Source of the DNA: a bacterium
GTDB taxonomy: Bacteria > JACRDZ01 > JAQUKH01
Assembly (NCBI GenBank): GCA_028719205.1
Contig: JAQUKH010000030.1
Span: 1-30,940 of the forward strand
Direction: 5' to 3'
Length of the DNA stretch: 30,940 nucleotides
In this document: piece after piece, positions 2,058-29,935 of the stretch
Layout of the letters: the number at the start of each line of letters is the position of its first letter
Numbering within the stretch: the stretch's first letter is position 1
Position numbers and translations under genes: made by a program
Notes under the pieces: generated by a model
Seen by the model: the letters and a program-made list of their open reading frames with translations, nothing else
Databases searched by the model: none
Told to the model about the DNA's origin: nothing

Positions 2058-4127
2058 TTATGGTTTCAGTTCTTCTATTTTTTTCCTGATGATCTCAATA
2101 ACCGGATTTTCAGGGAAATCTGTTAATAATTTGATATATTCGGCGCGCGCTTTAGCATTGTCTTTAAAATTTGTTTCATAAATGGACGCCAGTTGTTTGG
2201 CTGCTTCCTGCCTGTAAAAAAAAGAATTTATTTTTTTAATATTCTCATAAATTTTCAGCGCCTCAGGCCATTTGTGCTCTAAAGAATAGATCTCGCCCAA
2301 TTCCATTAAAAAATATATCATAAGTTTTGAGCCGGGATTCCTGCTTATAAAATCATTCGCGTTATTTTCCGCCTCAGGCAATTTGTAATAATTTTTTTCA
2401 CGGATTATATTGGTTAGCGCCTTTAACTCAATTTCATTTTCCTTATTTTTATTCAAAAGGACCAGCCTGAGCAAAGTTTGATTTGCCTGCGGTTCTCCGG
2501 GAAACCGTTTGGCAAAATCTTCAAAAGAGCCCTTAGCTTTTTTAAAATCATCTTCTAAAAAGCAGATCTCCGCAAGATAAAAATTCGCGGGAGAAGAGAA
2601 GACCCCGAACATTTTGTTGTTTACAATGGTTGTAAATTGATTTTTTGCTTCTGTAAAATTGCCCAGAAGGAATTCAACTTCAGCCGACCGGAAAAAAGCT
2701 TTATTTTTAGTTTCGTTTTGTTCAGGCTTATTTTTAAAGTAATTTAATGTTTCTTTTGCCGAAGACAAGTTATGTGTTTCAAAAAGAATTTCGCCTTTTA
2801 AGGCATAGGCTTGAGAAAAATAAGGTTCCGGCATATTTTCATTAATGATCTCGTTTAGAATATTCAGACTCGAATCATAACTCCCAAGATCGTAAAAGGA
2901 CAGGGCGACTTGATAATTTGCCAATGGCCCGAAAGGGGAGGTATCTTTTATTTTAGTAAAGGTTGTTATTGCCTCTTTATAAAATTTTTTGTTAATAAGT
3001 TTTTCTCCAAGTTGAACCAGAACAATCTCTTTGTTTTTCCTGAGTTCACCTGCTTTTTCAAAACAGGGGATACTCTGATCGGGCCGGTTTGTTTCAAGAT
3101 AGATCTCGCCGAGAAGCTGATATGATTCAGCGGACTCCGGTTTTCTTGAAATTTCCGATTTTGCTTTTTCGATCAACAGCCCGGGATCATTTGAGCCTTT
3201 GATAACCTCATACAGTTCTGAAATTACGAACGGGAAATCCTGCGGGGAATAATTTAAAAGGTTAAGCAGTTCTTCAAAAGCTAAGCCTGTTTGCGCCTGT
3301 AAAAGATAAATTTCAAATATCTCCCGGTGATAAACTAATGGATTATTAAATCTCTTCCTTGCATCCAGGTAGCAATTTAGCGCTTCATCGGTCAGGCCTT
3401 TTTTGTTAAATATGGACACCGTGAACTGCAGGGTTTGGCCGTTAGGATCCTGAATAAAAATATTTTTCCAGATCGATATTGCCTCTTTTTTTCTGTCAGA
3501 TCCAAAATAGAGATCTCCCAGGGTTTCAAAATAGAAAAGATCTTTATTCGGATTTTTCTCCCAGATAGAAATAGCCTGAGAATATTTTTTTTGCCAGAGA
3601 TAAAAATTTACGAGGATCCGGCGGATATGATCTTTTCCGGGAAACCGGTTTAATTCATTCTCAAGACTTTTAATTTTTTCTTCCAGGATATTTGTTTTTT
3701 CATAAACCCGGAAAAGGTGCTCCTGCAGGTCAGGATTAAACGGGTCTTTTTCTGCCATTTCCTCAAGGATCCCAATTTGTTTTTTTGGATCATTATTTAT
3801 TTGATACAATTCAGCCAGCCTTCCGCGGATCGTGTTTATTTCAGGTACCGCGGGATAATTTTTTACTAACATCTCATATTCTTTTGCCGCTTCCTCAAAA
3901 TTTCCAAGTTTGTCATAACTCTCAGCTATCCCTTTCTGGCAGGTGATTTTTTCATTTTCATCCAGAGTGGTCAACAATATTTCTTTATATGTTGTTATAG
4001 CGGATTCATATTGTTTTTTATTGAAAAAACTATTGGCCTGGAATAATTTGTAGGTTTTAATATTAGGCATGGCCCGGGATGCTGTGATAAAAGTTAATAA
4101 AAGGATGAGAATGGAAAATTTCTTCAT
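2058..4127 (-). CDS. secreted tetratricopeptide-repeat (TPR) protein
   Basis: 689 aa. Signal peptide MKKFSILILLLTFITASRA. Many 34-aa repeats with the W/LG/Y...A...F...A...P pattern throughout (AISIWKNIFIQDPNG, YQLLGEIYLETNRPDQSIPCFEKA, etc.). Confidence 0.75.
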   Translation of the reverse strand: MKKFSILILLLTFITASRAMPNIKTYKLFQANSFFNKKQYESAITTYKEILLTTLDENEKITCQKGIAESYDKLGNFEEAAKEYEMLVKNYPAVPEINTIRGRLAELYQINNDPKKQIGILEEMAEKDPFNPDLQEHLFRVYEKTNILEEKIKSLENELNRFPGKDHIRRILVNFYLWQKKYSQAISIWEKNPNKDLFYFETLGDLYFGSDRKKEAISIWKNIFIQDPNGQTLQFTVSIFNKKGLTDEALNCYLDARKRFNNPLVYHREIFEIYLLQAQTGLAFEELLNLLNYSPQDFPFVISELYEVIKGSNDPGLLIEKAKSEISRKPESAESYQLLGEIYLETNRPDQSIPCFEKAGELRKNKEIVLVQLGEKLINKKFYKEAITTFTKIKDTSPFGPLANYQVALSFYDLGSYDSSLNILNEIINENMPEPYFSQAYALKGEILFETHNLSSAKETLNYFKNKPEQNETKNKAFFRSAEVEFLLGNFTEAKNQFTTIVNNKMFGVFSSPANFYLAEICFLEDDFKKAKGSFEDFAKRFPGEPQANQTLLRLVLLNKNKENEIELKALTNIIREKNYYKLPEAENNANDFISRNPGSKLMIYFLMELGEIYSLEHKWPEALKIYENIKKINSFFYRQEAAKQLASIYETNFKDNAKARAEYIKLLTDFPENPVIEIIRKKIEELKP

Positions 4128-5484: not shown

Positions 5485-8139
5485 TTATTTTCCAAAATTA
5501 GCCGCCATTGGTATTAAATCATTTCCATCAATTATTGAATTACCATCTAAATCCGCGAGAGCATTCCAGTTTGTATCTGTTGTGTCTGAACCGAATGCTC
5601 TTTTCAGAATGTATAAATCATGTCCATCTACCCGAGTAATTGAACCTGGAGAAAGAGTATCAATATTTCCCAGAAAGATTTTATCAAATGTTTGGGTTGG
5701 TTTAACACCAATACTATAAACACCTGTTCCTTTATTATTCCCATGTGAAACAGTCAAATAACATCTTTTACTTGATAAGGCGTGCCATATTATATTTGAC
5801 CCCCCGCCCTGGTTACCTGTTTTATCCTGCCCTAATACTGTGGCAGAGTCACTATCATACAGTTTAATAAGGGTTATCATGTCTTCAGGATATAACTTGG
5901 AAGTGTAGAAAGTATAACTATTCCCTCCTGTCGCGTCAAAATAAAAATAATCAACATCCCCGTCTGTTTCAAGCTTTCCATTGACTATCGTACTATCTAA
6001 AAGCCTTGTAGCGCCCGCAAAAGTACTGCCATAATCATCAGATATAACACCAGAAGTTTTCAGGGAAGCATTTGCAGAAAGGTTAAAATTTTCTGTTATT
6101 TTTACTTCAGGAATCGAAGATCCTGCTTTAATGGAAGTCCCATGTGGAGTCTCCACAGAAGTACCAGATGGATTAGAAACTTTAGCATTGAATGTGTAGT
6201 CACCATTTATATAATTGGCAATTATTCCCGTATATTTTCCGTCACCGGCTATGTAATCAGGACTTAAACCATCATCTTTTAAACCAATAGCTGATGTAGT
6301 AACAGCTCCTGTTGTATCTGTAACGGTAACAGTTGCCTCCACAGTAGCGCCCTTAATATTTAATCTTCTATAGGGAGTTGCTGTTATTAATATTGGCTCA
6401 GGATATTTTCCTCCATTTGCCTCCAGGTCCAATGAATAATCCGCATCTGTTTTAGCTTCTAATATAACCTCGATATTTGTAGTATCCGCGGATGATAACG
6501 AAAGTTCCATTTGCCATTCGCCTGAAGCTGGATCGGTTACTTCGTATATTATATAACCGGGTTCTTTAATATAATTAATATTTGAAAAAGCGCTCACGGT
6601 TGTAGAATCAACTAAAGCATTATTAGGCATTATCAGGCTTAATCCCATCTTTTGTGTATTTGGGAAAGCAGCACTAAATATTGCTTTTTTAGAGGAGGGG
6701 TCTACGATAACACTTGTGGTTTTAGATGGTTTTGAAAGATTTAGATTGTCTTTAACCCAAGCCGTAAGTTTATCATCAGAGGTCATGCTTTGAATATCAG
6801 AATAGATGGCATTAAGTGTGGCGGCTGATGACGCAAAATAGGATTTACCTCTCGTTCCCGTTGAGACAGCGCCTAATGTAGCCATATCTGCGTTTGCGCC
6901 TAATCCTATAGAGTAAACAGGGTATCCGGCACTTTGCAAATCAGTTAGAACCGCTCCTGTCGGTGATTCTCCGCTATTATGCAAGCCATCTGTCAGCAAA
7001 ACAATATACTTAAACGTTCCTTTGCGCGTACTGGCGTTTAAAATATTTAAACCGCTGCGTAATGCGGCTCCAATAGCTGTATTATTACCGGGAGCAATCG
7101 TGTCGATACTTGCTTTAAATCCGGCTTTTGTGGTTGAATCCAGCAGTGCAAGCGAAGCCAAAGTAGATACTACGTCATCATAAATCACTACAGCGGCGTA
7201 ATCTGTTTCTTTAAGCTTATCAAGATATGATTTCGCGCCGGATTTGGCATCCTGCATTTTAGTACTGGTATTAACACTGGTACTCTCGGCCATACTTCCT
7301 GAATGATCGATAATGATGACGGCCTCTGATCCTCCCATATATATTATTTCCACATCCGGAGCGCCGGCAGGTTGTGTCAGGACAGTCGGGTTTGCAAGCG
7401 CGTTGAGGTCAGGGAATTCATATCTTGGCAGTTGAGATGTCAGCCTTGGATTAAAAAGATCCCAAATCGGGTCTCGAACTAATGTCGCCCAGCATGAGGA
7501 TTCATTCATTCTCCATTGAGCGGTATTCTGGGTAGTACTGCTATAATCTGAATCAAGGCTGAACTGCTGATTAGTCCTGTGATCAGCCATTAAGGTTATT
7601 TTCCTGTTATCTGTGGAATGAGGCATATAGTCGATACTGTCATATGTTGTGGAAGTCGGTTTATATTCATCATAAAGGCCATAGGCGTAATGCCCTAATT
7701 CATGGGCCATCGCATGGCCTACTTCATTAAGATCATTGAGATTATCATCTACCCATATTCTTCCGGCATTATGGGTAAAACCATTGGGGGTAGCATTTGC
7801 TAAATCTCCATTGTTTTCAAATTGAATATCTGCCTTACCCCATTCACGTTCTTTATTAGTAATAGGATCAGGAGTATATACATAGAGAGTTTTTAAGAAA
7901 TGTTTGCCTTCTGTCATTTTATAAACATCGCTGGCAAAGAGTTTAAAAACAGTATCTAAGTGTGTTGTGTCAGTAGCGGTAGGTTTCCATTTCAGAGAGA
8001 TAACAAGATTAAAGGCTCCGGAGGAATCCCATTTTGTAAGGGAACTGCTGCCTGCGTATACAGTAGAGTAATTTAAAAATAGAATGAAAGCTATTAATAT
8101 ACCAAAAAAAATTCTATTTAGAATATATTTCATTTTCAT
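5485..8139 (-). CDS. secreted CLCA-like zincin metalloprotease with VWA domain and C-terminal dockerin
   Basis: 884 aa. Signal peptide. HAMAHELGHYAYGLYDEY fits the CLCA-type motif HExxHxxxGxxDE (codons at 7690-7704). MIDAS DHSGSM plus ...LLTDGLHNSG indicates a VWA domain (about 7294-7308). The C-terminus carries two dockerin-type Ca-binding repeats (VDGHDLYILKRAFG and DLDGNSIIDGNDLIPMAANFG) at about 5488-5680. Confidence 0.7.
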   Translation of the reverse strand: MKMKYILNRIFFGILIAFILFLNYSTVYAGSSSLTKWDSSGAFNLVISLKWKPTATDTTHLDTVFKLFASDVYKMTEGKHFLKTLYVYTPDPITNKEREWGKADIQFENNGDLANATPNGFTHNAGRIWVDDNLNDLNEVGHAMAHELGHYAYGLYDEYKPTSTTYDSIDYMPHSTDNRKITLMADHRTNQQFSLDSDYSSTTQNTAQWRMNESSCWATLVRDPIWDLFNPRLTSQLPRYEFPDLNALANPTVLTQPAGAPDVEIIYMGGSEAVIIIDHSGSMAESTSVNTSTKMQDAKSGAKSYLDKLKETDYAAVVIYDDVVSTLASLALLDSTTKAGFKASIDTIAPGNNTAIGAALRSGLNILNASTRKGTFKYIVLLTDGLHNSGESPTGAVLTDLQSAGYPVYSIGLGANADMATLGAVSTGTRGKSYFASSAATLNAIYSDIQSMTSDDKLTAWVKDNLNLSKPSKTTSVIVDPSSKKAIFSAAFPNTQKMGLSLIMPNNALVDSTTVSAFSNINYIKEPGYIIYEVTDPASGEWQMELSLSSADTTNIEVILEAKTDADYSLDLEANGGKYPEPILITATPYRRLNIKGATVEATVTVTDTTGAVTTSAIGLKDDGLSPDYIAGDGKYTGIIANYINGDYTFNAKVSNPSGTSVETPHGTSIKAGSSIPEVKITENFNLSANASLKTSGVISDDYGSTFAGATRLLDSTIVNGKLETDGDVDYFYFDATGGNSYTFYTSKLYPEDMITLIKLYDSDSATVLGQDKTGNQGGGSNIIWHALSSKRCYLTVSHGNNKGTGVYSIGVKPTQTFDKIFLGNIDTLSPGSITRVDGHDLYILKRAFGSDTTDTNWNALADLDGNSIIDGNDLIPMAANFGK

Positions 8140-8621: not shown

Positions 8622-8691
8622 TATAAAACTATTCTAACATTGATATGTATGAAGTCAATATAAAATTTTGGGATACAAATATAGTACAAAT

Positions 8692-8723
8692 AAAAAGGGG
8701 AGGCAGGTCGCCTCCCCTTTTTT
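8692..8723 (-). terminator. rho-independent terminator (bidirectional: A5-ggggaggc-aggtc-gcctcccc-T6)
   Basis: Perfect 8-bp GC stem with a 5-nt loop and U-runs on both strands. It begins 11 nt after the stop of the 8738..9940 lipoprotein gene. Confidence 0.8.
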
Positions 8724-8737
8724 ACGATGGAATTAAA

Positions 8738-9940
8738 TTATCGTGTTTTTAATTGTACTATGCGGCTTATTACATTACCGTATTTATCAGCAAGGGCTGT
8801 GAAAGCAGGGCCGGCAGTCTGAGTACTTGTAATATATATTGTACCCGGATAAGTATATGTGATCGTAGCGCCAGCAGCTGTTGCATATGTACTGAAATGC
8901 GGTGTAAGTGTAAGCGTTAAGTTACTATTAGAAAGAGCCGCGGTAACATTGCTTGCGGCAGCGGTATCAAATACTGCGCCTGAAGCGCCGGATAATGTTC
9001 CAACAAACGTGGATTCGAATCCAGTTGTTAAACTTACGGCCTGATTAAATGTCAAAGTAAGAACACCCGTACTGTCAATAGTACCGGGTACAGAGTTTGA
9101 AGCAATATTAACATAAAGATTAGGATCTAAATTAGCTAATGCAATGGTTTGATCTACTTTATTGGTTCCGATAATAAACGAGGCTCCAGCGGCTCCGCCA
9201 AGTTGCTGACCCTGGAAAGTTAACGGATCAACAGTAACAGTATATTGTCCACCCAAAACAAGGGTTGAATCGGCAAATGTAGCTATACCGGCTGAGTCCG
9301 TTGTAGCGGATACATTCGGCATTAATCCCGCTGATGCAAGCAATCTGTTGCCGGTTTCAGCAATAGGAGTACTACCTGTAATATTCTGTTGTAAACGAAC
9401 GGTTGCGCCGCTAACGACTCTGGCGAAAGGATCTGTCACTTTGACAGTAACACTGCCTGCAGTAGTTCCTGTAGGGAAAAGATAAATATTCCCCAGCATA
9501 TTATATTTACCATCTACTCTCATAGAATCAGTCTTATCCGCGAATGTATTTACTGATAACGCGTTAGGAGTGACATTCCCTTTAAAATCTTGATAACCGT
9601 CTCTTGTAACGACTAATTGATATATTATATTTCCGGCATAAAGGTTAAATGGGATATTGTTATATGCGTAAAACCCATAATCCCTGTCATTAGTGTCGGT
9701 TACTAATACATCAGGATCACGGCGGTCTGAACCTTGATATAGACGCATTTTAAGAAGATCATTACCACCAAGGCGGCTGCCGGTTACGGCGTCAAAAATG
9801 AAGCCCTGTAAGGTTCCTGTTTTATTAAATTCACCGGATACTACATTATCACCTTTTTCTCCTTTGAAATTATCACATCCACTCGAGATTGCTGCTATAA
9901 ACAGCACAGCAAATAAAAATAATCCTAATCTTTTCATCAT
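8738..9940 (-). CDS. Thr/Ser/Gly/Ala-rich surface lipoprotein with Ig-like beta-strand repeats
   Basis: 400 aa. Lipobox AISSGC. Composition is dominated by T, S, G, A, V and N, with repeated beta-strand-like segments (TVTVDPLTF, TLTLTP, ITYTYPGTIYITST). Strong AAGGAGA ribosome binding site. A candidate promoter TTGATA-N17-TATATT lies at 10047-10075. Confidence 0.6.
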   Translation of the reverse strand: MMKRLGLFLFAVLFIAAISSGCDNFKGEKGDNVVSGEFNKTGTLQGFIFDAVTGSRLGGNDLLKMRLYQGSDRRDPDVLVTDTNDRDYGFYAYNNIPFNLYAGNIIYQLVVTRDGYQDFKGNVTPNALSVNTFADKTDSMRVDGKYNMLGNIYLFPTGTTAGSVTVKVTDPFARVVSGATVRLQQNITGSTPIAETGNRLLASAGLMPNVSATTDSAGIATFADSTLVLGGQYTVTVDPLTFQGQQLGGAAGASFIIGTNKVDQTIALANLDPNLYVNIASNSVPGTIDSTGVLTLTFNQAVSLTTGFESTFVGTLSGASGAVFDTAAASNVTAALSNSNLTLTLTPHFSTYATAAGATITYTYPGTIYITSTQTAGPAFTALADKYGNVISRIVQLKTR

Positions 9941-10104: not shown

Positions 10105-13100
10105 TTATTTTTCCTCCGACAAACGGCGGAAATATCCCTCCACAAGTTCGCGGTATTCTAAAGGTATTTTATCCTCCTGCATATTTTCTATCTCGGACAA
10201 AATTTTCTTTTTGATGTCTTTAAAAGAATCCGGCAGGTCCTTTGGAGCTTCATTAATTCCAAAGTCCTGTCCGGTGGTTGATTTCCATTCTTTTCCTGCC
10301 TCGCGCTGCCTGATGGATTTCTGGGCGTCGAGCAGTCTTGTTAATATTTTCCGCTGTCTTTGCTGTACTTTTTCATCGGCTTCTTTGTTTTTTAATCCTT
10401 TTTCCACTTCTTCCATATCGCTTAAAGTCCCCCCGAAACTTCCTGATTTTTCGGAAAGAGACTGCATTTGTTTTTCCAATTCCTCCAGGGCCTGTTTAAT
10501 AAGGGATTGTTCAAACGCCATTTGCTGAAAAATATTTTCTTCCTGCGGGTTTAACCCTCCATTTTTTTTCATCAATCTATCAAGTTTTTTGGTAAGCTCA
10601 TTCAGATTTTCCTGCCGTTCGGAAAGTTTTTTCAATTCCTCCATAAATGAACCCGATCCGCCTCCGGGGGGGGCGTCTGAAAGGTCCTCATGCAGTTTAA
10701 TTAAATAAAGGGTTATACTGTTAACCTTTCCCATGCCTTCTTTCCCAAAGGAAAGCGCCTCCGGGGTTTGCCCGTTTTTCAATGCCTCAATGGACTGGCT
10801 GAGATTATCCTGAGCCTTTCGAATATTATCGGCTAAATGAGGATTAATAAATATAAATTTTTTTGATAATTCTTTGTATTCTTTTTCAAAAAGGTTGACA
10901 CCTTGTTTGAGGTTGTTTTCCTTTCCTGCCAGTTCCTGCCGTTTTTCTTCACTGACGCCTGACCGGGATTCGGATAAATTTTTTCTTGTCATTTCGTTTA
11001 TTTCATTTCCTGATGATGAAATTATCAGTCCGTAATCAATGGCCTTTTCAATAGCGGATAAAATTTCCTGCATGGATTTTTCTTTAAAATCTTCCTGTAT
11101 TTTGCTGAGTTTTTTGGAGAGGCCTTTTAACTCAGACGATATTTTCTCGTCAATTTTTTTACCGCCTTTTTTAACCGCGGATTCAAGCTCTTTTGTCAGC
11201 TCATCCATTTTCTTTTCTAATTCATTTTTTTCCATTTCATTGCTTGCCTCTTTGAGGCTTTCTGAAGTTTTTTTATCCATCTCTTTCAGGTCTTTGCTTA
11301 GTTTTTCAAGGTCATTTTTCACATCGTTAGTTTCTTTTTTTATGGATTTTTCTTCACTTACCGCTTTATCATCAGGGAAGATGTTTTTTTCCTGGCGGTT
11401 TGCCAATTTATCAACCTCATTAATTAAGGCCTCCAGTTTCTGTTCCGCAAGGGTTCGTTTTAATAAATTAAGCGTGCGGTCTATCTTTTCTTCGAATTCC
11501 TTTTGGTTAAAATTGGTTTCCATAAGTGATTTTTGTTTTTCTGAAAGGTTAGTCTGCTGCAGCGCTTTATTTATCTTCTCCATTAATTCTTTCATTTCAG
11601 CGGTTAAAACCTCATTGATCAGCTTTTGGATTTCAGCGATCTTTTCCAAAGTGTCTTCCTTAATAAAAGTACTCTTGGACAGCCTGTCAGTAGTGGTTTT
11701 CATATTTTTTAATATGTTCTCCAGATTCTCTTTGACTTTTTCCTCGCCTTTATGTATTGATTCCAGTTCTTTTTCTTTTGCCCAGTCAAATTCTTCCCCC
11801 TGGCTCATGCTGTTGATAAATTTTTCGGTCTTTTCTTTCAGGTCCTTTTGTTCCTTCAGGACATTCTGAAGTTTCAGGTTTTCAGACGTTTGGCTGTCTT
11901 CCGTGTCTTTATAGATCTCGAATAAAGAAGGAAAACGGATCTGGTAAGTATCAGACTTCCCGATATTCGGGCCGCTGATATTGTCATTGTCTTTTGCCTC
12001 AATATGATAGATTATTGTATCTCCCGGAAGAAAACCGAGCCCGGCTAAATTCCAGATGTAATCAAAAACAAGACTTTTATCCTGCGGACTTCCGGGTTTT
12101 TGCGTAAGCAGTATAGAGGCGGTTTCATTCCGGCTTAATATTTCAGCTTTTAATTCCACTGTGTCAATTCCATAGTCATCAAGCACGGAAATTTTTAACG
12201 GAACGATCATCCGCTCATCAATTGTTATATCTTTCCCCGGCTCAATTATTTTTACATCCGGAGGGTTGTCTAAGACAGCGTTAATTTTATATTGAGGGGA
12301 TTCGTTTGTGTATCCGTCTTTATCAAAAAGCTCAATATAATAGTTATCATCTTTTTTGACGGTTAACTCACCGCTTGCCTTGTTTTTCCGGATATTCATG
12401 GATATCTTTTTACCCGAAGGGAATTTCAGGCTCGCTGACTTAAGCTCTTTATTGCAGTCGATATTGATCTTTGCCCTGGTTCCGGTTATGGCTTTGATCC
12501 AGTTATCATTAACCGTTTTGGGAGGCAATTTTGTGTATTCAGGAAAAATAAGATCAACCTTAAGGTCGCGAATCTCAGGCTTTTCAATGATTTGAATAGT
12601 ATACTCAGGCGATTTCATATCTCCATGTGTAACATAATATTTTGTATCTTGTGTAATTTGAGAGAGCAGGGTCTGGTGTTTTGTATTTGTGATCCTGTTA
12701 AGGTCCTGAGTTTTTATTTCATTTCCGTTTGTCCAATAGAATATTTTTACATCGTTAAGGCTGGTCTTCAGGGAAAAGGCGGTTATCTCAATATCGTTTC
12801 CCGGAAATATTTTTGCGTTTCCCGGCGATATCTTTAACGGTATAGAGGGTGATACATTTTGAAACTCATTAGAAAAAAAAGACGAAGTCCCCGCGAACAT
12901 ATCGGGCGATATAATTATCAGCAATAATAAAAGCCCGGCCGCCGCGGCAAATATCCTAAGATCGTTTTTAAGGGGTTTCGCGGAAACAGCGTTTTTAAAA
13001 TTATACTTTGCAATAAGTTGTTCGGTATTTTCCAGATACGCGGAAATAAGGTTAAGAGAGTAACCATAGGTGTTATTATTAAAATATTTTTTTAATTGGA

Positions 13101-13410: not shown

Positions 13411-13543
13411 AACGATAAATTATTATACCATAAAAATATTATTTTAATATCATAGGCCTTTTTTATTATATGGAATGTTGCGGGGGAAAGGGGTGAAAAG
13501 TAGTGGAGTGTTTCCGATTATGCTGTTTTGTGCATAAAAACAC

Positions 13544-13576
13544 TTGACAAACAGTATTGTTAATAGTATTATTAAC
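13544..13576 (+). promoter_or_regulatory. sigma70-like promoter TTGACA-N17-TATTAT with overlapping palindromic operator GTTAATA-gtat-TATTAAC upstream of the Phd/YefM antitoxin gene
   Basis: -35 TTGACA at 13544-13549, exactly 17 nt, then -10 TATTAT at 13567-13572. The inverted repeat at 13559-13576 overlaps the -10. AGTATT is repeated four times across 13552-13596. The site is 40 nt upstream of the ATG at 13613 and is typical of an autoregulated TA operator. Confidence 0.5.
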
Positions 13577-13612
13577 AGTGTTATAAAAAGTATTATATGG
13601 AAAGGTTGTTAA

Positions 13613-13867
13613 ATGGATTATAAAATATCTGCGAATGAACTAAAGACAAAAGGCGTATCGGCTATAAAAGAAGCTACTGCTAATTATCCGGAGGCAGTTA
13701 TAACGGTAAGGGGTAAGAGCCGTTATGTTGTTATTCCAATCGAATCATATAATCATTTGAGGGAATGTGAACTGGAAGCCGCTATTATTGAATCCAAGAA
13801 AGATATAAAAAATGGTAAATATGTCCAGGAAAGTGTTGAAGATCACATTAAAAGACTAGTGCGCTGA
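13613..13867 (+). CDS. Phd/YefM-family type II antitoxin
   Basis: 84 aa. ...ISANELKTKGVSAIKEATANYPEAVITVRGKSRYVVIPIESYNHL matches the Phd/YefM core (ITkrGkpvaVvvsveeYe). Confidence 0.7.
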   Translation: MDYKISANELKTKGVSAIKEATANYPEAVITVRGKSRYVVIPIESYNHLRECELEAAIIESKKDIKNGKYVQESVEDHIKRLVR

Positions 13868-13913
13868 TAAATTAATTTTGATGCGATAGAATGCCCAGAT
13901 TTGAGACAATTTC

Positions 13914-14086
13914 AACGAACGACGACGCAGGCGTATCCTCTGCGATACGTCAAGGAGGAGTGAGGCAGAAATTGGCCAAAGATGGGTATTCCCGAAGGGC
14001 AGAGGTTCTTTTGCCCCGCTTCTGCGTTGCTCGTCGCTAACATACCGCAGAGGGTATGCTATGCTCCTCGTGCCTTGAATCAGGCC
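13914..14086. repeat. GC-rich, highly structured about 170-bp insertion separating antitoxin and toxin genes
   Basis: Abrupt GC-rich island in AT-rich DNA. It contains two similar local hairpins: cgtatc-ctctgc-gatacg (13933-13950) and catacc-gcagag-ggtatg (14041-14058). There is long-range complementarity between cgacgacgcag (13920-13930) and ctgcgt-tgc-tcgtcg (14021-14035), plus ccc-gaa-ggg and ggccaaag...cttttgcc pairs. The 5' end tttcAACGAAcg resembles the TTTTAACGAA end of the attC-like family at 25-30 kb. Confidence 0.5.
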
Positions 14087-14133
14087 AAAATAATCTCTGC
14101 TATCACATCAAAATAAATTTAACAGAGCACAAC

Positions 14134-14412
14134 ATGGCTAAAATAATATATACCGAAAGTTATATTAAACGGGCAAAGAAATTTGTTAAGAAACATCCTG
14201 AGATTATTAATCAATACGCTAAAACATTAAAATTGCTTGAAATTAATCCGTTTCATCCGTCCCTCAGGCTTCATAAATTAAAAGGCAGGCTTTCCAATCT
14301 ACATTCCGTATCAATAAATATCTCATACCGCATATCGATTGATTTTATAATTGAAAATGATACAATTATACCAATTGATATCGGTTCCCATGATGAAGTA
14401 TATCAAGATTAA
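14134..14412 (+). CDS. RelE/StbE-family type II toxin (mRNA interferase)
   Basis: Start is placed at the internal ATG at 14134 (MAKIIYTESYIKRAKKFVKKHPEI...). ...HKLKGRLSNLHSVSINISYRISIDFIIENDTIIPIDIGSHDEVY matches the RelE/ParE core (L.G.l.g..s.ri..dyRiiy.i.d..i.ii.igHR.d.Y). The ORF-track start at 14056 would add 26 residues read from the GC-rich insert. Confidence 0.7.
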   Translation: MAKIIYTESYIKRAKKFVKKHPEIINQYAKTLKLLEINPFHPSLRLHKLKGRLSNLHSVSINISYRISIDFIIENDTIIPIDIGSHDEVYQD

Positions 14413-14442
14413 ATTATTGCTACTTGAATATTAGGAAGGTAT

Positions 14443-14718
14443 ATGAGAGTTAGAAAAAACGAATTTAGGCGCGCGGAACCGCACATAGAATTAACGACAG
14501 GCGAGGTTATTCAAATGCTTCGTGAATTGAAAGAATGGACTCAGGAAGAATTGGCTAAACGCTCTGGTATTAACTCTACAAACATTAGTTTACTGGAAAA
14601 TGGCAGGGTAGATATTGGTAAAAAGCGGGCGGAACAATTGGCAAAGGCCTTCAATATCCATCCGGCAACTATCATGTTTCCCGAGTATGAGTCTTTGGAA
14701 ATAAAAAAAGCGGCGTAA
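14443..14718 (+). CDS. XRE-family helix-turn-helix transcriptional regulator (HigA-like position)
   Basis: 91 aa. LRELKEWTQEELAKRSGINSTNISLLENGRVDIGKKRAEQLAKAFNI is a Cro/C1-type HTH. AGGAAGG ribosome binding site. It lies 30 nt downstream of the RelE-type toxin, the same order as in higBA. Confidence 0.7.
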   Translation: MRVRKNEFRRAEPHIELTTGEVIQMLRELKEWTQEELAKRSGINSTNISLLENGRVDIGKKRAEQLAKAFNIHPATIMFPEYESLEIKKAA

Positions 14719-25040: not shown

Positions 25041-25097
25041 ATTATTTTTTACTACAGCCGCACTGTACTCGGCGCCGGTTACAACGTTTTGTTAATT
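25041..25097 (-). repeat. degenerate/relic attC-like site (R'' AATTAAC overlapping the stop codon; the L arm is degenerate and no R' end is present)
   Basis: The minus strand reads attaacaaaacgttgtaaccggcgccgagtacagtgcggctg. This aligns with the R''-proximal half of the 28.4-28.6 kb site (AACAAg...CCGaCGCCGAGTACgGcGCGGCTG). The outer stem is broken (cagccg vs ccggtt) and no GTTRRRY end precedes the next start codon. Confidence 0.45.
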
Positions 25098-25522
25098 TAT
25101 TTTATGACAACACATTCCTTTGGTTCGAGATTTTTTGCCATTGACCAAACAGTGGCCGCCATTTCTTTGACCCGAAATACGGCAATGCACTCTTGCCCAT
25201 ATTGAGCGACTATCGGCTTGAGGAAAGGCCTTTGTGAAATAATTTCCTCTCTTAACTTACTATCGTTTTCAGGTACGGCAATTCCGCTGACGCGGACTTG
25301 TACCAAATTCTGCGGATCGCCATTATGAAAACATAACTCAATATTAGGATTTGTCCGGAGCTGCTTATACAGGTCTCTCATCACGCCCGTGTGAAAAATA
25401 ATGCCTTTCTCATCAGCCCTATACATCCACATCCCGCGAACATGGGGTTTGTTATTAACGCACGTTGCCAACGCGCAAGACATATTTTTGTTAATGAACT
25501 CCAAGATTTCTTTCTGTGTCAT
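25097..25522 (-). CDS. pyridoxamine 5'-phosphate oxidase-like FMN-binding split-barrel protein (cassette ORF)
   Basis: 141 aa. ...SCALATCVNNKPHVRGMWMYRADEKGIIFHTGVMRDLYKQLRTNPNIELCFHNGD matches the PNPOx-family core. Its AGGAG ribosome binding site begins 6 nt after the attC R' GTTAGAA. Confidence 0.65.
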   Translation of the reverse strand: MTQKEILEFINKNMSCALATCVNNKPHVRGMWMYRADEKGIIFHTGVMRDLYKQLRTNPNIELCFHNGDPQNLVQVRVSGIAVPENDSKLREEIISQRPFLKPIVAQYGQECIAVFRVKEMAATVWSMAKNLEPKECVVIK

Positions 25523-25538
25523 ATTGTTCTCCTTTAAG

Positions 25539-25596
25539 TTCTAACGCCAAAGCTCACTGGCGGCGTACTCGCCGTCCAGTGAAGCGCCAGTTAGGC
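25539..25596 (-). repeat. integron attC-like recombination site (58 bp)
   Basis: The minus strand reads R'' GCCTAAC (plus 25590-25596), 11 nt after the brnA stop, and ends with R' GTTAGAA (plus 25539-25545). The centre is cactgg-cggcg-tact-cgccg-T-ccagtg with a single bulged T on the plus (bottom) strand. Confidence 0.7.
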
Positions 25597-25607
25597 TATT
25601 TTATTTA

Positions 25608-25823
25608 TTAAGCCGCTTTCCATTGCAAAGAAAGCCTGCGACTTGAAGCGGCACAATCACGCAAATAGAGATTGATCAGGGTTTGATATGGTATTTCTGC
25701 TTCTTCCGAAAGTTTTTTGAAATACTTAATTGTGTCCTCATCAAGCCGGATTGTAACCTGTTTTTTTAGGCGGCTAGCATATGGATTTTTTTTGGCTTTT
25801 GAAAAATCGTATTCTTTTCTCAT
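25608..25823 (-). CDS. brnA: BrnA-family antitoxin (RHH/CopG-like)
   Basis: 71 aa. KKQVTIRLDEDTIKYFKKLSEEAEIPYQTLINLYLRDCA matches BrnA. The last about 12 residues (SSRRLSLQWKAA) are read from the GC-rich attC-like element. Confidence 0.75.
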   Translation of the reverse strand: MRKEYDFSKAKKNPYASRLKKQVTIRLDEDTIKYFKKLSEEAEIPYQTLINLYLRDCAASSRRLSLQWKAA

Positions 25824-25826
25824 TTT

Positions 25827-26111
25827 TTACCTCCAATATTGTTTCTGTTCTGAACGGGTTGCTTTACGAGCAGATATAATTCTTATTACTTCATCATTCT
25901 TCTTATAACAGTGACAAACAACTAAAATACGAAGGTTAGAACTCAACCCAAGAAGTATAAATCTGTCCTCTTCATCCGAATGATCCGGGTCATGGAGAAG
26001 CAAGGCATTTTCATCAACGAATACTGTTTGGCCTTCCTCAAAGGATATACCATGTTTCTTTATGTTTGAAGTGTTTTTGTCCTTATCCCATTCAAATGAT
26101 ATGTTTGCCAT
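25827..26111 (-). CDS. brnT: BrnT-family toxin (ribonuclease)
   Basis: 94 aa. FEWDKDKNTSNIKKHGISFEEGQTVFVDENALLLHDPDHSDEEDRFILLG...LRILVVCHCYKKNDEVIRIISARKATRSEQKQY matches BrnT (FEWD..K...N..KHGv.FeEa..vF.D.......D..HS..E.R...iG). Confidence 0.8.
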   Translation of the reverse strand: MANISFEWDKDKNTSNIKKHGISFEEGQTVFVDENALLLHDPDHSDEEDRFILLGLSSNLRILVVCHCYKKNDEVIRIISARKATRSEQKQYWR

Positions 26112-26117
26112 ACTTAC

Positions 26118-26146
26118 ATTGTAACTACATTATAATGTTTTGTCAA
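26118..26146 (-). promoter_or_regulatory. cassette-internal promoter TTGACA-N17-TACAAT driving brnTA, 6 nt upstream of ATG (leaderless-type)
   Basis: Minus strand: TTGACA (plus 26141-26146), 17 nt, TACAAT (plus 26118-26123), then gtaagt and the ATG at 26111. There is no Shine-Dalgarno. The predicted transcription start coincides with the start codon. Confidence 0.5.
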
Positions 26147-26165
26147 TTTTATTTATAATTTATCT

Positions 26166-26225
26166 GTCTAACGCTAAAAAATCAGGCGTGGCTATAGGCC
26201 ATCGCCTGCATTGCCCTTGTTAAAA
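26166..26225 (-). repeat. integron attC-like recombination site (60 bp)
   Basis: The minus strand reads R'' TTTTAAC (plus 26219-26225), 11 nt after the DUF2442 stop, and R' GTTAGAC (plus 26166-26172). The centre is caggcg-tggc-tatag-gcca-T-cgcctg with a bulged T. Confidence 0.7.
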
Positions 26226-26236
26226 TCTTCTATTTA

Positions 26237-26479
26237 TTATTTAATAGTTTGTCCTACTTCGTAGAGGAAATCAGGTGAGAAATCAGCATTATTTGGCCAA
26301 ACTACAGTATCTATATCTTTATTGAGAGTTACGTTTTTAAAATATGAGATATCCTTTAGAGGCTCAAATATTTTTCCGTCAAGATATGATTTTAAATCAA
26401 CTATTTTATATTCATTATTTTCAAATTTTACTTTTAATTTATGTCCGTCAACATATTTTACATCAGTTATCCAATGCAT
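26237..26479 (-). CDS. DUF2442-family small protein (partner of DUF4160; TA-like pair)
   Basis: 80 aa. ITDVKYVDGHKLKVKFENNEYKIVDLKSYLDGKIFEPLKDISYFKNVTLNKDIDTVVWPNNADFSPDFLY matches the DUF2442 pattern (v.f.dG....vDL.p.L.G..F.pL.d...F..v......gtv.WPNGaD..Pe.L). Confidence 0.7.
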   Translation of the reverse strand: MHWITDVKYVDGHKLKVKFENNEYKIVDLKSYLDGKIFEPLKDISYFKNVTLNKDIDTVVWPNNADFSPDFLYEVGQTIK

Positions 26480-26490
26480 AAAATAACCTC

Positions 26491-26751
26491 CTATACTAAA
26501 GGTTCAATCTTTTTAAGTTCGTCTTTCCTTTCAACCAATTCCCAATCTTCCAGTAATTCTTCACGATGCAGAAAAGCCCATTCTAAAACAAGTGAAATTA
26601 TTCTTTTTGGTAAGTCACCTTCAATAAGCTTTAATTCATTTATAGAAAAAGATGCTCTGAATTCACCATACTTAGCATGAAAATGCGGTGGTGTATGTTC
26701 ATTATAATACATCGAAATTATTATTCCTAAAAATCTGGAGATTTCTGGCAT
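26491..26751 (-). CDS. DUF4160-family small protein (partner of DUF2442; TA-like pair)
   Basis: 86 aa. MPEISRFLGIIISMYYNEHTPPHFHAKYGEFRASFSINEL...LPKRIISLVLEWAFLHREELLEDWE matches DUF4160 (MP.is.F.Gi.I.my..dH.PPHfHa.Y). Confidence 0.7.
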   Translation of the reverse strand: MPEISRFLGIIISMYYNEHTPPHFHAKYGEFRASFSINELKLIEGDLPKRIISLVLEWAFLHREELLEDWELVERKDELKKIEPLV

Positions 26752-26847
26752 TAATCTTCCTTTCTGCTGAAATTATATCATATTTTATATATTTGTTATT
26801 CAGATTTTATAAAAGTTCAAATAGTTGGGATTGTTCCTAAATTTTAT

Positions 26848-26906
26848 TTTTAACGAATAAATCAGCGGTGCCGCTATGCGGTATCCGCTGCATGATGTTG
26901 TTAAAA
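26848..26906 (-). repeat. integron attC-like recombination site (59 bp)
   Basis: R'' TTTTAAC (plus 26900-26906) and R' GTTAAAA (plus 26848-26854). The centre is cagcgg-tgccg-ctatg-cggta-T-ccgctg with one inner-stem mismatch and a bulged T. The site starts 90 nt after the stop of the upstream ORF. Confidence 0.65.
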
Positions 26907-26995
26907 TCTTATTTTTTATATCTTCCCTTTTTGTTTATCGATGAAATAAAAGAGGGGTTAGGAAAGTTTAAATAGTTAAGAGCGTCCCCTATCTC

Positions 26996-27733
26996 TCAAT
27001 TGGATATAGATAAAGTTTTTGTTCTTGTTGGAGTAACAGAATCATTTTCATAAATTTCAATTGTTTTAGTATATGGACCGTCCCAGAAGGAAATATTCAT
27101 ATCATTATTTTTCGATTCTGATATAAAAACTCCTGTCGCTCCAAACATTCCTCCTATATTATTAGGATCATATTCAATCCAGCCTAAAGGATCCTTCGCC
27201 CAAATATCTTCTGAAGTTAATATAACTACTTTTAACTTAGCTCCCTCAATAAGTTCAGCTCTCAAACTATATGATTTACGAGTTATGATGTTAATTGAGT
27301 TTTCTCCTAAGATATTATTTCCGTAAATGCCTGTTTCAGGATAAGTAATGCCGGAAGTACCTGCTCCTTTAATAGTAAAAGTATAAAGGTTTTCGTCTAA
27401 ATCGTTATTTTTTATAAGTATGGAGGCAGTTTGTTCTTCTTTATTTTTAGGATTATAATTGATACTAAAAGTTTGCCTTGCGCCTAATGGAATAATCATT
27501 GAAGAAGGTTGAGTCAAAGTGAATACATTGCTATCACTTGTTAAAGTTATGTTGTCGCTTATTATTAAGTCATTATTGCCATTATTCTCTATCGTAAAAG
27601 TTATTGTCGTACTTTGATTAATTTTAATACTTCCGAAGTCATAAATTCCGCCTGAAGATATATCAGTATTCCCTACCTTCAGGATTAGTTAGTTTTGCAC
27701 CAGTGTTTTCATCTACATTCGTATTTGGGTACA
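26996..27733 (-). pseudogene. disrupted cassette ORF encoding an Ig-like/ASH-like beta-sandwich domain (in-frame TAA at 27689-27691)
   Basis: The ORF track gives only a TTG-initiated 173-aa ORF (26996..27517). The same frame reads on upstream without ATG or GTG as ...LILKVGNTDISSGGIYDFGSIKINQSTTITFTIENNGNNDLIISDNITLTSDSNVFTLTQPSS..., so the domain begins before the called start. An in-frame TAA follows MYPNTNVDENTGAK (ATG at 27733). The gene looks nonsense-interrupted. Confidence 0.4.
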
Positions 27734-27832
27734 TTGATCCTGAGGTTATTAGAAAAATTGAAAATCAATACCACCCCCCACCCGTGTTTAGTTAATTTTG
27801 TCATATGAATATTCCCTTTTTTATTTTTCTAT

Positions 27833-27889
27833 TTTTAACATTTGAGCTCAGGCGTGCCGTTAGGCGTCGCTTGAAGCGATTCGTTAAAA
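27833..27889 (-). repeat. integron attC-like recombination site (57 bp, slightly degenerate)
   Basis: R'' TTTTAAC (plus 27883-27889) and R' GTTAAAA (plus 27833-27839). The centre is caggcg-tgcc-gtta-ggcg-T-cgcttg with two stem mismatches. The bulged T is retained. Confidence 0.6.
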
Positions 27890-27956
27890 TCTTAATCTGT
27901 AAATCTTTTTTTGGTGTACTAATTCAATTCTGTTATCGAGCTGCTCCTTAAGTATG

Positions 27957-28385
27957 TTAGTTTCTTCCCATTTCAATTAGAAGAAATATATTCCCTTCTT
28001 TATCTTCTACATATCTCCAAAATGGCGATTTGAAATGAATTGAGGCCGCAACTACTTCTTGTTGCTTATATCCTTCAGCACTTGCTCGAACAATAAATTG
28101 TCTTTCTCCTATGTCTGGACATTTACTTAAGAAGAATTTCCATGGGATTCTGAATTTACCTTTTTTATCAATTTTAAAAGTATATGTTTTTGTATTTTCC
28201 TTAACAAGAAATCCTTTTTCATGGATTTCTAAAACAATTTTAGCATCAATTATAGGTTCGTTATTATCTTTACTTACAATTTGCCCATAAATTGTTTTGG
28301 TAAAATTTTGTTCACAACCAGATATAGAGAAAACAATTATAAAAAATATTAATAATTGTAAATAGATACTAATTTTATTATTCAT
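27957..28385 (-). CDS. cassette-encoded lipoprotein, hypothetical
   Basis: Start is placed at ATG 28385 (MNNKISIYLQLLIFFIIVFSISGC, a lipobox), 11 nt after attC R' GTTAAAT. The ORF-track start at 28460 would read 25 extra residues out of the attC-like element. Confidence 0.55.
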   Translation of the reverse strand: MNNKISIYLQLLIFFIIVFSISGCEQNFTKTIYGQIVSKDNNEPIIDAKIVLEIHEKGFLVKENTKTYTFKIDKKGKFRIPWKFFLSKCPDIGERQFIVRASAEGYKQQEVVAASIHFKSPFWRYVEDKEGNIFLLIEMGRN

Positions 28386-28396
28386 AGATATTTTCA

Positions 28397-28622
28397 ATTT
28401 AACAGCGAGTTGAGCGAAATTGAACTGGACTGGCATGCTTGCATGCCAAGACCAGGGCAATTTGCGCTCGAACGATTTGTTCGACCGCGCGAATCAGCGC
28501 GCGGTCGGACTAATCGGGCGAGTGCGTACGCGCAACTCGCTGTTCGGGCGCGCGCAGCGCGGCCGAACGCCCGAAACTCAGCCGCGCCGTACTCGGCGTC
28601 GGCTGGAGTGCACTTGTTAAAA
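28397..28622 (-). repeat. atypical long (226 bp) attC-like site with about 165-bp GC-rich structured insert
   Basis: Canonical ends: R'' TTTTAAC (plus 28616-28622) and R' GTTAAAT (plus 28397-28403). The R''-proximal arm is cagccg-cgccg-tact-cggcg-T-cggctg, a perfect stem with a bulged T. Between the arms lies very GC-rich sequence with perfect hairpins: gaccgcgcg-aatcag-cgcgcggtc, ggcatgc-tt-gcatgcc, and cgggcg...cgcccg. Confidence 0.6.
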
Positions 28623-28659
28623 TCTTAAATTGTAAAAGTATCTCACAAATTTAAAGAGC

Positions 28660-28878
28660 CTAGATATTTTTTAGTATTTCTTCAGCAGAATAAAAATGAG
28701 CTTTTTTATTTTTTTCTTTTATTTCAAATGTTTCAATCTCTTTCCTGTCTACCAGATTTTCGTACATCTCTATCATTGATTTCTTTAACAGTTTTGAACG
28801 GTCTTCGTCGTAATAAGTTTCTAATTTTTTTAAAACTTTTTCTTCATATGGATTAAATCTTACAGATATTACAGCCAT
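28660..28878 (-). CDS. ribbon-helix-helix antitoxin (DUF6290-like)
   Basis: 72 aa. MAVISVRFNPYEEKVLKKLETYYDEDRSKLLKKSMIEMYENLVD matches the DUF6290/RHH pattern (M.tisiRlneeEeklik.yA...g.s.Sefir.a.le.iEd). It overlaps the 3' end of the RelE-like gene by 10 nt. Confidence 0.6.
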   Translation of the reverse strand: MAVISVRFNPYEEKVLKKLETYYDEDRSKLLKKSMIEMYENLVDRKEIETFEIKEKNKKAHFYSAEEILKNI

Positions 28879-29138
28879 TGTTTATAAACCTCCTCTCGTT
28901 TTGCTATACTGATAATGAAGTAATCCTCATTTTCAATGTAGAATATCGCTCTGAACTTGTTTTTTCTCATTCTATAATATGTCCGTGCTTCATTTGATTT
29001 TAATCGCTTTATATCAAATAAGTTCAGATCTTTTGTTGTTTCCAAGGCAATAAATGCGTGATGAAATAATTGAAAAACCTCTTTAGGTATTTTTCCTTTC
29101 TTTAAATTCCGTAATACTTCATCTTCGTATTTAATCAT
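28869..29138 (-). CDS. RelE/ParE-family type II toxin
   Basis: 89 aa. ...IKRLKSNEARTYYRMRKNKFRAIFYIENEDYFIISIAKREEVYK matches the RelE core (l.g...g.yelRvg.yRiiY.i.d....il.i.hRkdvY). The toxin precedes its antitoxin, a higBA-like order. Confidence 0.7.
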   Translation of the reverse strand: MIKYEDEVLRNLKKGKIPKEVFQLFHHAFIALETTKDLNLFDIKRLKSNEARTYYRMRKNKFRAIFYIENEDYFIISIAKREEVYKQWL

Positions 29139-29144
29139 GTATAC

Positions 29145-29173
29145 ATTGTAATACTTATATTTATTTTTGTCAA
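29145..29173 (-). promoter_or_regulatory. cassette-internal promoter TTGACA-N17-TACAAT, 6 nt upstream of the RelE-like ATG (leaderless-type)
   Basis: Minus strand: TTGACA (plus 29168-29173), 17 nt, TACAAT (plus 29145-29150), then gtatac and the ATG at 29138. Same architecture as the brnTA cassette promoter. Confidence 0.5.
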
Positions 29174-29219
29174 GTTGTTTTTCGATAGGTGGGGAAGAAT
29201 TTAGTTATTTTATTCTTAT

Positions 29220-29279
29220 TTTTAACGTTGAAAACTCAGGCGCCGCCATAGGCGGTCGCCTGAAGTGCCCTTGTTAAAA
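29220..29279 (-). repeat. integron attC-like recombination site (60 bp)
   Basis: R'' TTTTAAC (plus 29273-29279), 2 nt after the ParE-like stop, and R' GTTAAAA (plus 29220-29226). The centre is caggcg-ccgcc-ata-ggcgg-T-cgcctg, perfect stems with a bulged T. Confidence 0.7.
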
Positions 29280-29281
29280 TT

Positions 29282-29575: not shown

Positions 29576-29577
29576 AG

Positions 29578-29787: not shown

Positions 29788-29868
29788 AATTTATACCTCT
29801 TAAATATATTTATTTCTTCTGAATTATAGCACAAAATATCTTAATATATTAATTTTTCTAATTTTCAT

Positions 29869-29927: not shown

Positions 29928-29935
29928 ATCTTAAT

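Follow-up and report, generated by a model that had tools for sequence, protein, structure and literature searches.

A bacterial contig of 30,940 nucleotides (nt) (JAQUKH010000030.1, positions 1 to 30,940 of the forward strand, from GenBank assembly GCA_028719205.1; referred to here as the window) carries a gene for a Phd/YefM-type antitoxin and a gene for a RelE-type toxin that are set 266 nt apart, and a gene for an XRE regulator with a helix-turn-helix (HTH) domain follows the toxin gene. The question raised by this locus is whether the three genes form one regulated system or whether an ordinary operon has been altered. The reading we favor, with a probability of roughly 0.85, is that the gap is a copy of a non-autonomous, 272-nt element resembling a MITE (a miniature transposable element with inverted repeats), which landed at a TA dinucleotide at the normally overlapping junction of a Phd/YefM-YafQ/RelE pair.

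The three open reading frames (ORFs) that a first-pass annotation had proposed from the sequence were all found on the forward strand. The antitoxin ORF (13613–13867) encodes 84 amino acids (aa) and matches Pfam PF02604 (E = 6e-5) with 23.1 bits, which is under the curated cut-off of 29.8, yet it has thousands of clear homologs. As annotated, it is preceded by a promoter-like site, TTGACA-17-TATTAT (13544–13572, forward strand; 11 of 12 positions match in a consensus scan), and by a perfect 8-bp palindrome read from the sequence, TGTTAATA-GTAT-TATTAACA (13558–13577), which overlaps the -10 hexamer and is a candidate operator by analogy with the usual autoregulation of type II toxin-antitoxin operons. 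The ORF located 266 nt past the antitoxin gene (14134–14412) encodes an intact 92-aa protein with an ATG start and no Shine-Dalgarno sequence. Its YafQ, RelE/StbE, and HigB-like matches are all under cut-off, including PF15738 (E = 4e-5, 24.3 bits versus 30) and TIGR02385 (E = 1e-5, 26.0 bits versus 27.9). The XRE-HTH protein (91 aa, 14443–14718) matches HTH_3 at E = 3e-12, and its gene has its own Shine-Dalgarno sequence (AGGAAGG). A scan for tRNA and tmRNA genes gave no match.

The toxin has 3918 homologs, many of them about 80% identical and found in metagenome-assembled genomes labelled Spirochaetota, Actinomycetota, Bacteroidota, Desulfobacterota, and others; several of the homologs carry PF15738 or PF05015. 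Contiguity with the antitoxin gene was assessed at 80 toxin-homolog loci sampled from species-representative genomes, with neighboring genes searched by tblastn. A Phd homolog ends 0–80 nt before the toxin start or overlaps the toxin gene at all 80 loci. The closest of these, L003 (95% identity for Phd and 86% for the toxin), has a 16-nt spacer, the same promoter region, and no insert. A further locus, L083 (GCA_040754625.1), is syntenic with the window, having the same 1098-aa gene upstream and MazG downstream, and here too the insert is missing and Phd overlaps the GTG start of the toxin gene. Between L083 and the window, 77 of the first 82 Phd residues are identical, and the toxin orthologs share 95% identity. 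Their global alignment consists of three collinear blocks (84–91% identity) separated by two indels: at 13858–14128 the window has 271 nt more than L083, and between 14418 and 14423 it has 300 nt fewer. In all, the window carries about 271–275 extra bases at the antitoxin/toxin junction, and the empty site in L083 reads GAC-TA-AAAC. The TTGACA...AGTATT promoter region is kept in both L003 and L083.

Judged from these comparisons, the Phd–toxin pair is normally contiguous, and the window holds a disrupted member of the Phd/YefM-RelE(YafQ) operon type. The ortholog comparison thus bears out the suggestion of the first-pass annotation that a yefM-relE-type operon was disrupted by insertion of a repeat, and the insert belongs to a dispersed multi-copy family, as described below. 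The same annotation had taken the missing Shine-Dalgarno sequence of the toxin gene as consistent with lost translational coupling. The sequence is indeed missing, but not as a consequence of the insertion, as relatives without the insert have none either; their toxin genes lack it because the start codon adjoins the stop of the antitoxin gene or overlaps with it. The toxin ORF is also not degenerate. Most codons that differ between the window and L083 are synonymous (18 of 23 in Phd, 19 of 24 in the toxin, and 17 of 23 in XRE), so the genes have been under purifying selection, and all three look functional from their coding sequences.

The gap has a GC content of 51–54%, compared with about 30% in the flanks, and is predicted to fold at -97 kcal/mol (z = -5.2 relative to shuffled sequence), with the opposite strand folding equally well. 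An element of about 170 bp with paired hairpins had initially been described within it. The GC-rich, folded character and the local hairpins at 13930–13951 and 14041–14058 are confirmed, whereas the extent is not: the structured unit includes an AT-rich outer stem, begins inside the Phd ORF, and spans 272 nt on the forward strand (13859–14130) as an imperfect palindrome, GTGC...GCAC. This whole unit is missing in L083 and L003 and scores 269 bits with a covariance model of the family. The last two codons of Phd (V, R) and its TGA stop (13865–13867) are supplied by the element. The window thus resembles other type II Phd/YefM and RelE/YafQ operons in having the antitoxin first, a promoter with a palindrome, and small proteins, and differs from them in having 266 nt between the two cistrons and in taking the C-terminus and stop of Phd from the element.

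The element is built from an outer stem and three inner hairpins, all described here on the forward strand. The outer stem, P1 (helix 1), pairs a 5' arm (13859–13888) with a 3' arm (14101–14130) that ends 3 nt before the toxin ATG; it comprises 30 pairs, 29 of which show compensatory changes in the family. In the window, P1 has 28 matches and 7 mismatches over 35 positions, more mismatches than in most copies, which fits an older and possibly immobile copy. Domain A (13889–13991, helices 2–5) is a long hairpin made up of lower stems (13889–13913 with 13968–13991), a helix of C-G pairs and tandem G.A mismatches (13916–13926 with 13954–13964), and a sequence-conserved apical hairpin, CGTATC-CTCTGC-GATACG (13930–13951). 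A central mini-hairpin, CC-CGA-GG (13992–13998, helix 6), forms part of TTCCCGAAGGGC and is invariant, hence without covariation evidence. Domain B (13999–14100, helices 7, 8, and 10) is a second long hairpin with stems that pair 13999–14022 with 14077–14100; its apical hairpin, CATACC-GCAGAG-GGTATG (14041–14058), is variable in sequence within the family, with pairing kept.

A coding function for the insert was considered and rejected. Three ORFs inside the insert had no Pfam match, a protein search with the 49-aa ORF among the inner ORFs yielded no candidate, and an HMMER search of 1.84 billion representatives returned nothing beyond some repetitive proteins and a single plausible spurious ORF. 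Moreover, the conserved blocks are contiguous and show no codon-like periodicity.

Several searches gave no relative of the element. Positions 13800–14200 had no match in Rfam 15 even at E ≤ 10, and at the gathering threshold there was none for the window or for 12 loci with copies; plasmid and phage collections searched with the insert by blastn and viral contigs scanned with two patterns were likewise negative, as was a comparison with loci L001–L083 (L001 and L002 merely re-sample the window's own sequence). Copies were recovered with a search pattern derived from positions common to both arms of the palindrome, ACGASGA-N9-13-CCTCTGCGRTAYGT, which matched 26 metagenome contigs, about a dozen of which align to the insert by blastn over approximately 200 nt at 73–83% identity. 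A profile (A2) of the peptides incidentally encoded by the conserved core recovered spurious ORFs from further copies, whose contigs gave more sites. The covariance-model search that had been suggested for the insert thus found nothing in Rfam, but a model of the family itself (R1) matches a dispersed set of sequences, scoring full-length copies at 171–282 bits. In total, element homologs occur at about 17 other distinct metagenome sites, most of them between housekeeping genes. The copies are 269–312 nt long, with 43–63% GC and 20–36 matched pairs in the terminal palindrome. The family appears undescribed: it has no Rfam match, and searches of the literature for an already known family of this character gave general MITE reviews only.

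The sites themselves are diverse. Copies lie between an ftsQ-like gene and ftsA (L112, L113, L114, and L118), between alaS and hisD (L115), between map and a glycosyltransferase gene 3' of secY-adk (L110), upstream of uvrA (L111), and adjoining a tRNA gene and smpB/tmRNA (L099). In L117, two copies that are 95% identical (826–1110 and 2507–2789) stand on either side of secD, 1.7 kb apart. A copy in L085 is located between genes for a DUF6290 antitoxin and a ParE-family toxin (6503–7063); it is in reverse orientation and sits four codons into the toxin gene, right after the antitoxin gene. The insertion of 276 nt (274 nt plus TA) is in frame and stop-free, resulting in a 186-aa fusion ORF, and is a second independent insertion at an antitoxin/toxin junction besides that in the window. 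Within a single sample, identical elements occur between different flanks (L094 and L109; L112 and L115), and the same element at unrelated loci indicates a dispersed, mobile repeat. Copies are found in both orientations relative to neighboring genes.

Flanks were compared at 14 distinct sites in 15 rows, with L094 and L109 representing one element at two sites. At seven of these sites P1 is bordered by TA on both sides, often as C-TA-G, and copy a of L117 is a further such case; four more sites have TA on one side, and L108 has TTAA on both. The elements in L085, L109, L094, L087, L093, and L115 start with G (TA-GTG...) or CTGA (TA-CTGA...). Because of these starts, an element that inserts at the TA of a stop codon immediately provides a new stop (TAG, or TAC-TGA), which may explain copies placed exactly at gene ends. 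Separately, the copy in L094 is nested in another inverted repeat, GTCATTGCGAG...GCGACGAAGCAATC / GATTGCTTCGC...CTCGCAATGAC (495–535 and 811–853), and the CTCGCAATGACA motif of this nest is also present beside the copy in L109 (3752–3790); this inverted repeat is possibly a second repeat family.

The shared fold was examined in an alignment of 14 distinct copies (A3). As modelled, the family fold is a three-way junction in which P1 (30 bp) closes the long hairpin A, a mini-hairpin of 2–3 bp, and the long hairpin B. Standard pairs occupy 93.4% of the cells, compared with 68.4% after column shuffles and 34–41% when partners are slid by 1–3 columns. Double (compensatory) changes occur in 69 of 90 pairs, and none of 500 shuffles reaches any of the observed measures. 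These results show that the single-strand fold of the family is under strong constraint. The single giant hairpin given by the minimum-free-energy fold of the window copy alone was rejected as the family structure, as the halves of other copies pair locally and not mutually.

Conservation of sequence is concentrated inside the element. The sequence CGACGACG in hairpin A is invariant in all 14 copies and lies opposite the G-rich GAGGAGGAG; the two form C-G pairs with tandem G.A/A.G mismatches between them. L085 and L108 have Watson-Crick pairs in place of the mismatches (GTCGGCG), in support of the helix. On the other hand, P1 and the lower stems are almost wholly different between subfamilies, with near-perfect pairing within each copy. 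The loop of the mini-hairpin in other copies is GAA (as in CCC-GAA-GGG), TTCG, or a form with insertions. In L112 (3980–4288) and L115 (3980–4270), an AT-rich insertion of 13–16 nt is present in this loop, and domain B of L112 contains an additional palindrome rich in GC, GCCTGCCGGCAGGCAGGC, so that insertions are tolerated both at the junction and in the B arm. The two copies in L117 differ at about 14 positions, 10 of which form five compensatory pairs (TT/AA to CC/GG, A/T to G/C, and G/C to A/T), including a paired single-base deletion, which hints at arm-to-arm correction. Pairing between the conserved apices (CAAGG/CCTTG and GAGGAG/CTCCTC) was also considered and is not claimed: L085 offers one compensatory case, but column 62:269 is without covariation.

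No preference for one strand was seen. The alignment folds at -111.4 kcal/mol in the forward direction and -111.2 kcal/mol in reverse, and the counts of G.U and A.C pairs are similar (52/28 forward and 45/35 reverse). Since both strands fold equally and orientation to genes is mixed, no RNA polarity is evident, and a strand-specific RNA function was set aside. The constraint could act on DNA, as a cruciform or a single strand, or on RNA in either direction.

The XRE gene has a separate explanation. No homolog of it was found at any of the 80 loci holding a toxin homolog. In L083, its ortholog (10606–10881; 85 of 91 residues identical, about 93%) follows a RelE-superfamily gene of its own (10325–10597, 90–92 aa) with weak YoeB and HigB-like matches, which is in turn preceded by an AT-rich promoter-like palindrome. 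By pairwise alignment, L083 has approximately 300 bp (10286–10585), comprising the promoter-like region and this toxin gene, at the position of an apparent deletion scar in the window (14413–14442). The remnant between toxin and XRE in the window is 30 nt long and includes the XRE Shine-Dalgarno sequence. The comparison identifies the XRE protein as the predicted orphan antitoxin of an adjacent, toxin-first RelE-like/XRE pair with its toxin gene deleted, and not as the partner of the YafQ/RelE-type toxin. As to direction, we infer a loss in the window and not a gain in L083; loss is favored because an antitoxin without its toxin is the expected survivor of such an event. The order of a RelE-fold toxin followed by a small XRE-HTH protein resembles that of HigB-HigA systems, and this is also true of the L083 ortholog and its RelE-superfamily gene; the difference is that the toxin in the window is not the partner of XRE, the true partner gene having been deleted.

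Regulation or neutralization of the toxin by XRE, as proposed in the first-pass annotation, is thus not supported, and neither is its alternative of a three-component Phd-RelE-XRE module: Phd is directly upstream of the toxin at all 80 loci and a homolog of XRE is near it at none, and the toxin and promoter of about 300 bp that belong with XRE are missing in the window. In a broader version, the locus would be a designed three-component system in which a structured RNA and XRE regulate the toxin of the RelE type, whether as Phd-RelE-XRE or, with Phd left as an orphan, as a HigBA-like toxin-XRE pair. Such a system could account for the HigB-HigA-like gene order, for the Shine-Dalgarno sequence that XRE has of its own, and for three intact ORFs with mostly synonymous divergence. 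We consider it very improbable, given the neighborhood counts, the RelE-like partner of XRE in L083, and the occurrence of the element family in ftsQ-ftsA, alaS-hisD, secD-secF, map, and uvrA contexts without toxin-antitoxin genes. Still more improbable, and nearly negligible, is an assembly artefact in the form of a chimeric join. The contig was assembled from a metagenome, and repeats may give rise to misjoins, but the same arrangement is present in two assemblies (the 30.9-kb contig and a Logan contig from SRR22315506), the operon runs on through the two flanks with its order and frame intact, and the element is complete with both arms.

An origin from an integron, in an ectopic event between attC and a secondary site, was also raised as a possibility by the first-pass annotation. 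On such a reading, the insert would be an empty cassette or attC-like site that an integron integrase put into a secondary site, with the cassette array 11 kb away as the source. In attC sites, R'' (RYYYAAC) at the 5' end pairs with R' (GTTRRRY) at the 3' end to form the stem base, and typical lengths are 57–141 nt. The window does contain a cassette array at about 25.0–30.9 kb with TTTTAACG...GTTAAAATC sites, one of which is GC-rich and approximately 220 nt long, and the window copy of the element contains TTTCAACGAA. However, the family consensus at that position is TTCAAGGAA, and the AAC/GTT core is not conserved. The window reads TTTCAAC at 13910 opposite CCTTGAA, in a family with the consensus CAAGG/CCTTG, so the resemblance of the insert's 5' end to attC comes down to one window-specific base (CAACG versus CAAGG). 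There is no GTTRRRY box at the proper end, the length of 272 nt exceeds the typical attC range, the attC sites of the window have no similarity to the insert by blastn, and the window contains no second copy. The relatives of the element lie outside integrons, in housekeeping operons (dcw, sec, ribosomal-protein, and his), and are mostly flanked by TA. The element and attC sites are alike in being imperfect palindromes constrained as folded structures and not by stem sequence, but the element lacks conserved R''/R' boxes, has the wrong size, is not at cassette boundaries, and conserves its inner core and not its ends. An ectopic event between attC and a secondary site is accordingly rejected as having almost no likelihood.

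Under the working definition, the element qualifies as a bacterial MITE, being small, non-coding, bounded by inverted repeats, and present at multiple loci with filled and empty sites, and TA target duplication is probable. IS630 elements prefer TA targets. The element would have been moved in trans, and its TA flanks, often inside CTAG, would fit a transposase of the IS630/Tc1-mariner type. Among the bacterial MITEs that have been reviewed (Correia/NEMIS, ERIC, RUP, and YPAL; PMC2229807), RUP is thought to be moved at TA by an IS630-family transposase, and a link to IS630-Spn1 is reported for it (PMC2229807). The element resembles these MITEs in its small size, lack of coding capacity, terminal inverted repeats, and TA at the termini, in its insertion between operon genes or in frame within genes, in the filled and empty sites seen between relatives, and in the folding of their transcripts into long stem-loops. 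It differs from them in being larger (270–310 nt versus about 100–200 nt), in forming a three-way junction with two inner long hairpins and not a single end-to-end stem (only CIR is described with independently folding halves), in having variable ends and a nearly invariant inner core, and in occurring in hosts of very different base composition and not in one genus. REPINs offer a further comparison, judged by overall shape, in that they consist of two inverted hairpins within a larger hairpin and are GC-rich and extragenic. REP units are 20–40 nt long with a conserved GTAG-type head and form inverted pairs, and REPINs are moved by RAYT transposases. The element is about three times longer than REPINs, has no GTAG-type REP head, is flanked by TA, and has no RAYT gene seen with it; its size and its TA flanks speak against its being a REPIN.

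Several observations weigh against the MITE-like reading. The ends vary strongly between subfamilies and the core is conserved, a pattern opposite to that of classical MITEs, and one that makes a DDE transposase binding terminal inverted repeats less plausible. No autonomous partner, transposase, or second occurrence of any P1 arm was found among the collected loci, and the R1 model detects no second copy in the 30.9-kb window, L083, or L003. The window copy has TA on the left only (GACTA-...-AACATG) with AA on the right, so that a target duplication is not demonstrable at this site. TA is also self-complementary and could represent the last two pairs of P1 instead of a duplication. For the accompanying indel beside XRE, the polarity is drawn from no outgroup.

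An enzyme reading the structure and the conserved core of domain A, possibly on single-stranded DNA, would fit the variable ends better. In a rival reading along these lines, the element is a mobile structured nucleic acid and not a cut-and-paste MITE, moving through a single-stranded intermediate, either single-stranded DNA with an HUH-type or other structure-specific enzyme or RNA with a reverse transcriptase; recognition would take place at the apex of domain A, and repair acting on the folded strand would maintain perfect stems. The near-invariance of CGACGACG and the GTATC...GATAC hairpin, in an element whose P1 and lower stems change sequence and keep pairing, speaks for this route, as do the differences between the L117 copies, which are mostly paired on both arms and include a compensatory indel. 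The C-G helix with tandem G.A mismatches, replaced by Watson-Crick pairs in L085 and L108, is in agreement with it, and the central C-GAA-G loop resembles a very stable DNA mini-hairpin motif (PMC13037366). However, TA flanks inside CTAG are the classic signature of IS630/mariner transposition (compare RUP and IS630-Spn1; PMC2229807), the strands fold equally and copies are in both orientations without strand or RNA polarity, and no gene for a reverse transcriptase or an HUH-type enzyme was noticed in the vicinity of the copies. We therefore regard a single-stranded route as a possibility of some weight but an unlikely one. More speculative, and rather doubtful, is the wider proposal of an undescribed class of structure-defined mobile elements, in which a three-way-junction module of approximately 270 nt would be recognized through its nearly invariant arm (the CGACGACG/tandem G.A helix and the GTATC...GATAC hairpin) and not through its ends, and would spread across distant bacterial lineages. 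Its arms would be kept complementary by copying or repair on a folded single strand, a step suggested because the L117 copies show paired differences. As P1 joins the upstream stop to the downstream start, such a module could sit inside operons, even at toxin-antitoxin junctions, without breaking coupling.

Returning to the MITE-like insertion and its effect on the operon, no intrinsic terminator or terminator-like T-run was found in or after the element, and because of this lack of a T-run, read-through from the Phd promoter is expected, with Phd, toxin, and XRE all probably still transcribed from it. An outward promoter for the toxin was considered, but the sole candidate (14119–14147) has its -10 hexamer inside the toxin ORF and cannot serve the toxin. 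The Phd stop occupies positions 7–9 of the P1 5' arm, and the toxin ATG stands beside the 3' arm. A ribosome finishing Phd would have to melt P1, freeing the toxin start, and without Phd translation P1 would mask the region just 5' of the toxin ATG. Toxin translation may for this reason still depend on antitoxin translation, and translational coupling could survive in an altered form according to the modelled fold. Alternatively, the long duplexes might be cut by RNase III, as has been reported for the stems of Correia elements (PMC2229807).

Other features of the region were also recorded. In L083, a pair of genes of the NTP_transf_5/AbiEii-like nucleotidyltransferase type (186 aa and a 75-aa gene; 8675–9440) is located between the large upstream gene and the Phd promoter and is missing from the window; the intergenic island therefore acts as a hotspot of small modules resembling toxin-antitoxin pairs. 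A motif, TGCTGTTTTGTGCATAAAA, is found just 5' of the Phd promoter (13521–13539), and it recurs 3' of the toxin in L003 as three TTTTGTGCA(A/T)AA repeats (3309–3375). These may be boundary repeats of a mobile toxin-antitoxin unit. The integron-like cassette array (25050–30940) has all its genes on the reverse strand, with intervening attC-like sites that read TTTTAACG...GTTAAAATC on the forward strand, at about 25540–25600, 26165–26225, 26848–26905, 27842–27890, 29222–29275, and 29868–29925. The cassettes include genes for PNPOx, BrnT, DUF2442/DUF4160, and two ParE toxins. A further attC-like site (28395–28615), at approximately 220 nt much larger than attC sites usually are, is multi-branched and very rich in GC, and as DNA it folds at -88 kcal/mol (z = -12). 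No gene for an integrase was identified in the window, where non-cassette ORFs were not scanned against protein families.

An exotic-looking, three-part toxin-antitoxin arrangement thus resolves into two ordinary events, one insertion and one deletion, and serves as a warning that gene order alone is no proof of a system. The event in the window is ordinary; the element family is widespread, with unusually clean covariation and a conserved core combined with free but paired stems, a pattern of conservation that is not the one predicted for inverted repeats bound by a transposase. If it is true that the mobilizing enzyme reads structure, the family would represent a new route of DNA mobility in bacteria. 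The copies also provide natural test cases for long hairpins between coupled cistrons and their effect on translation and mRNA processing.

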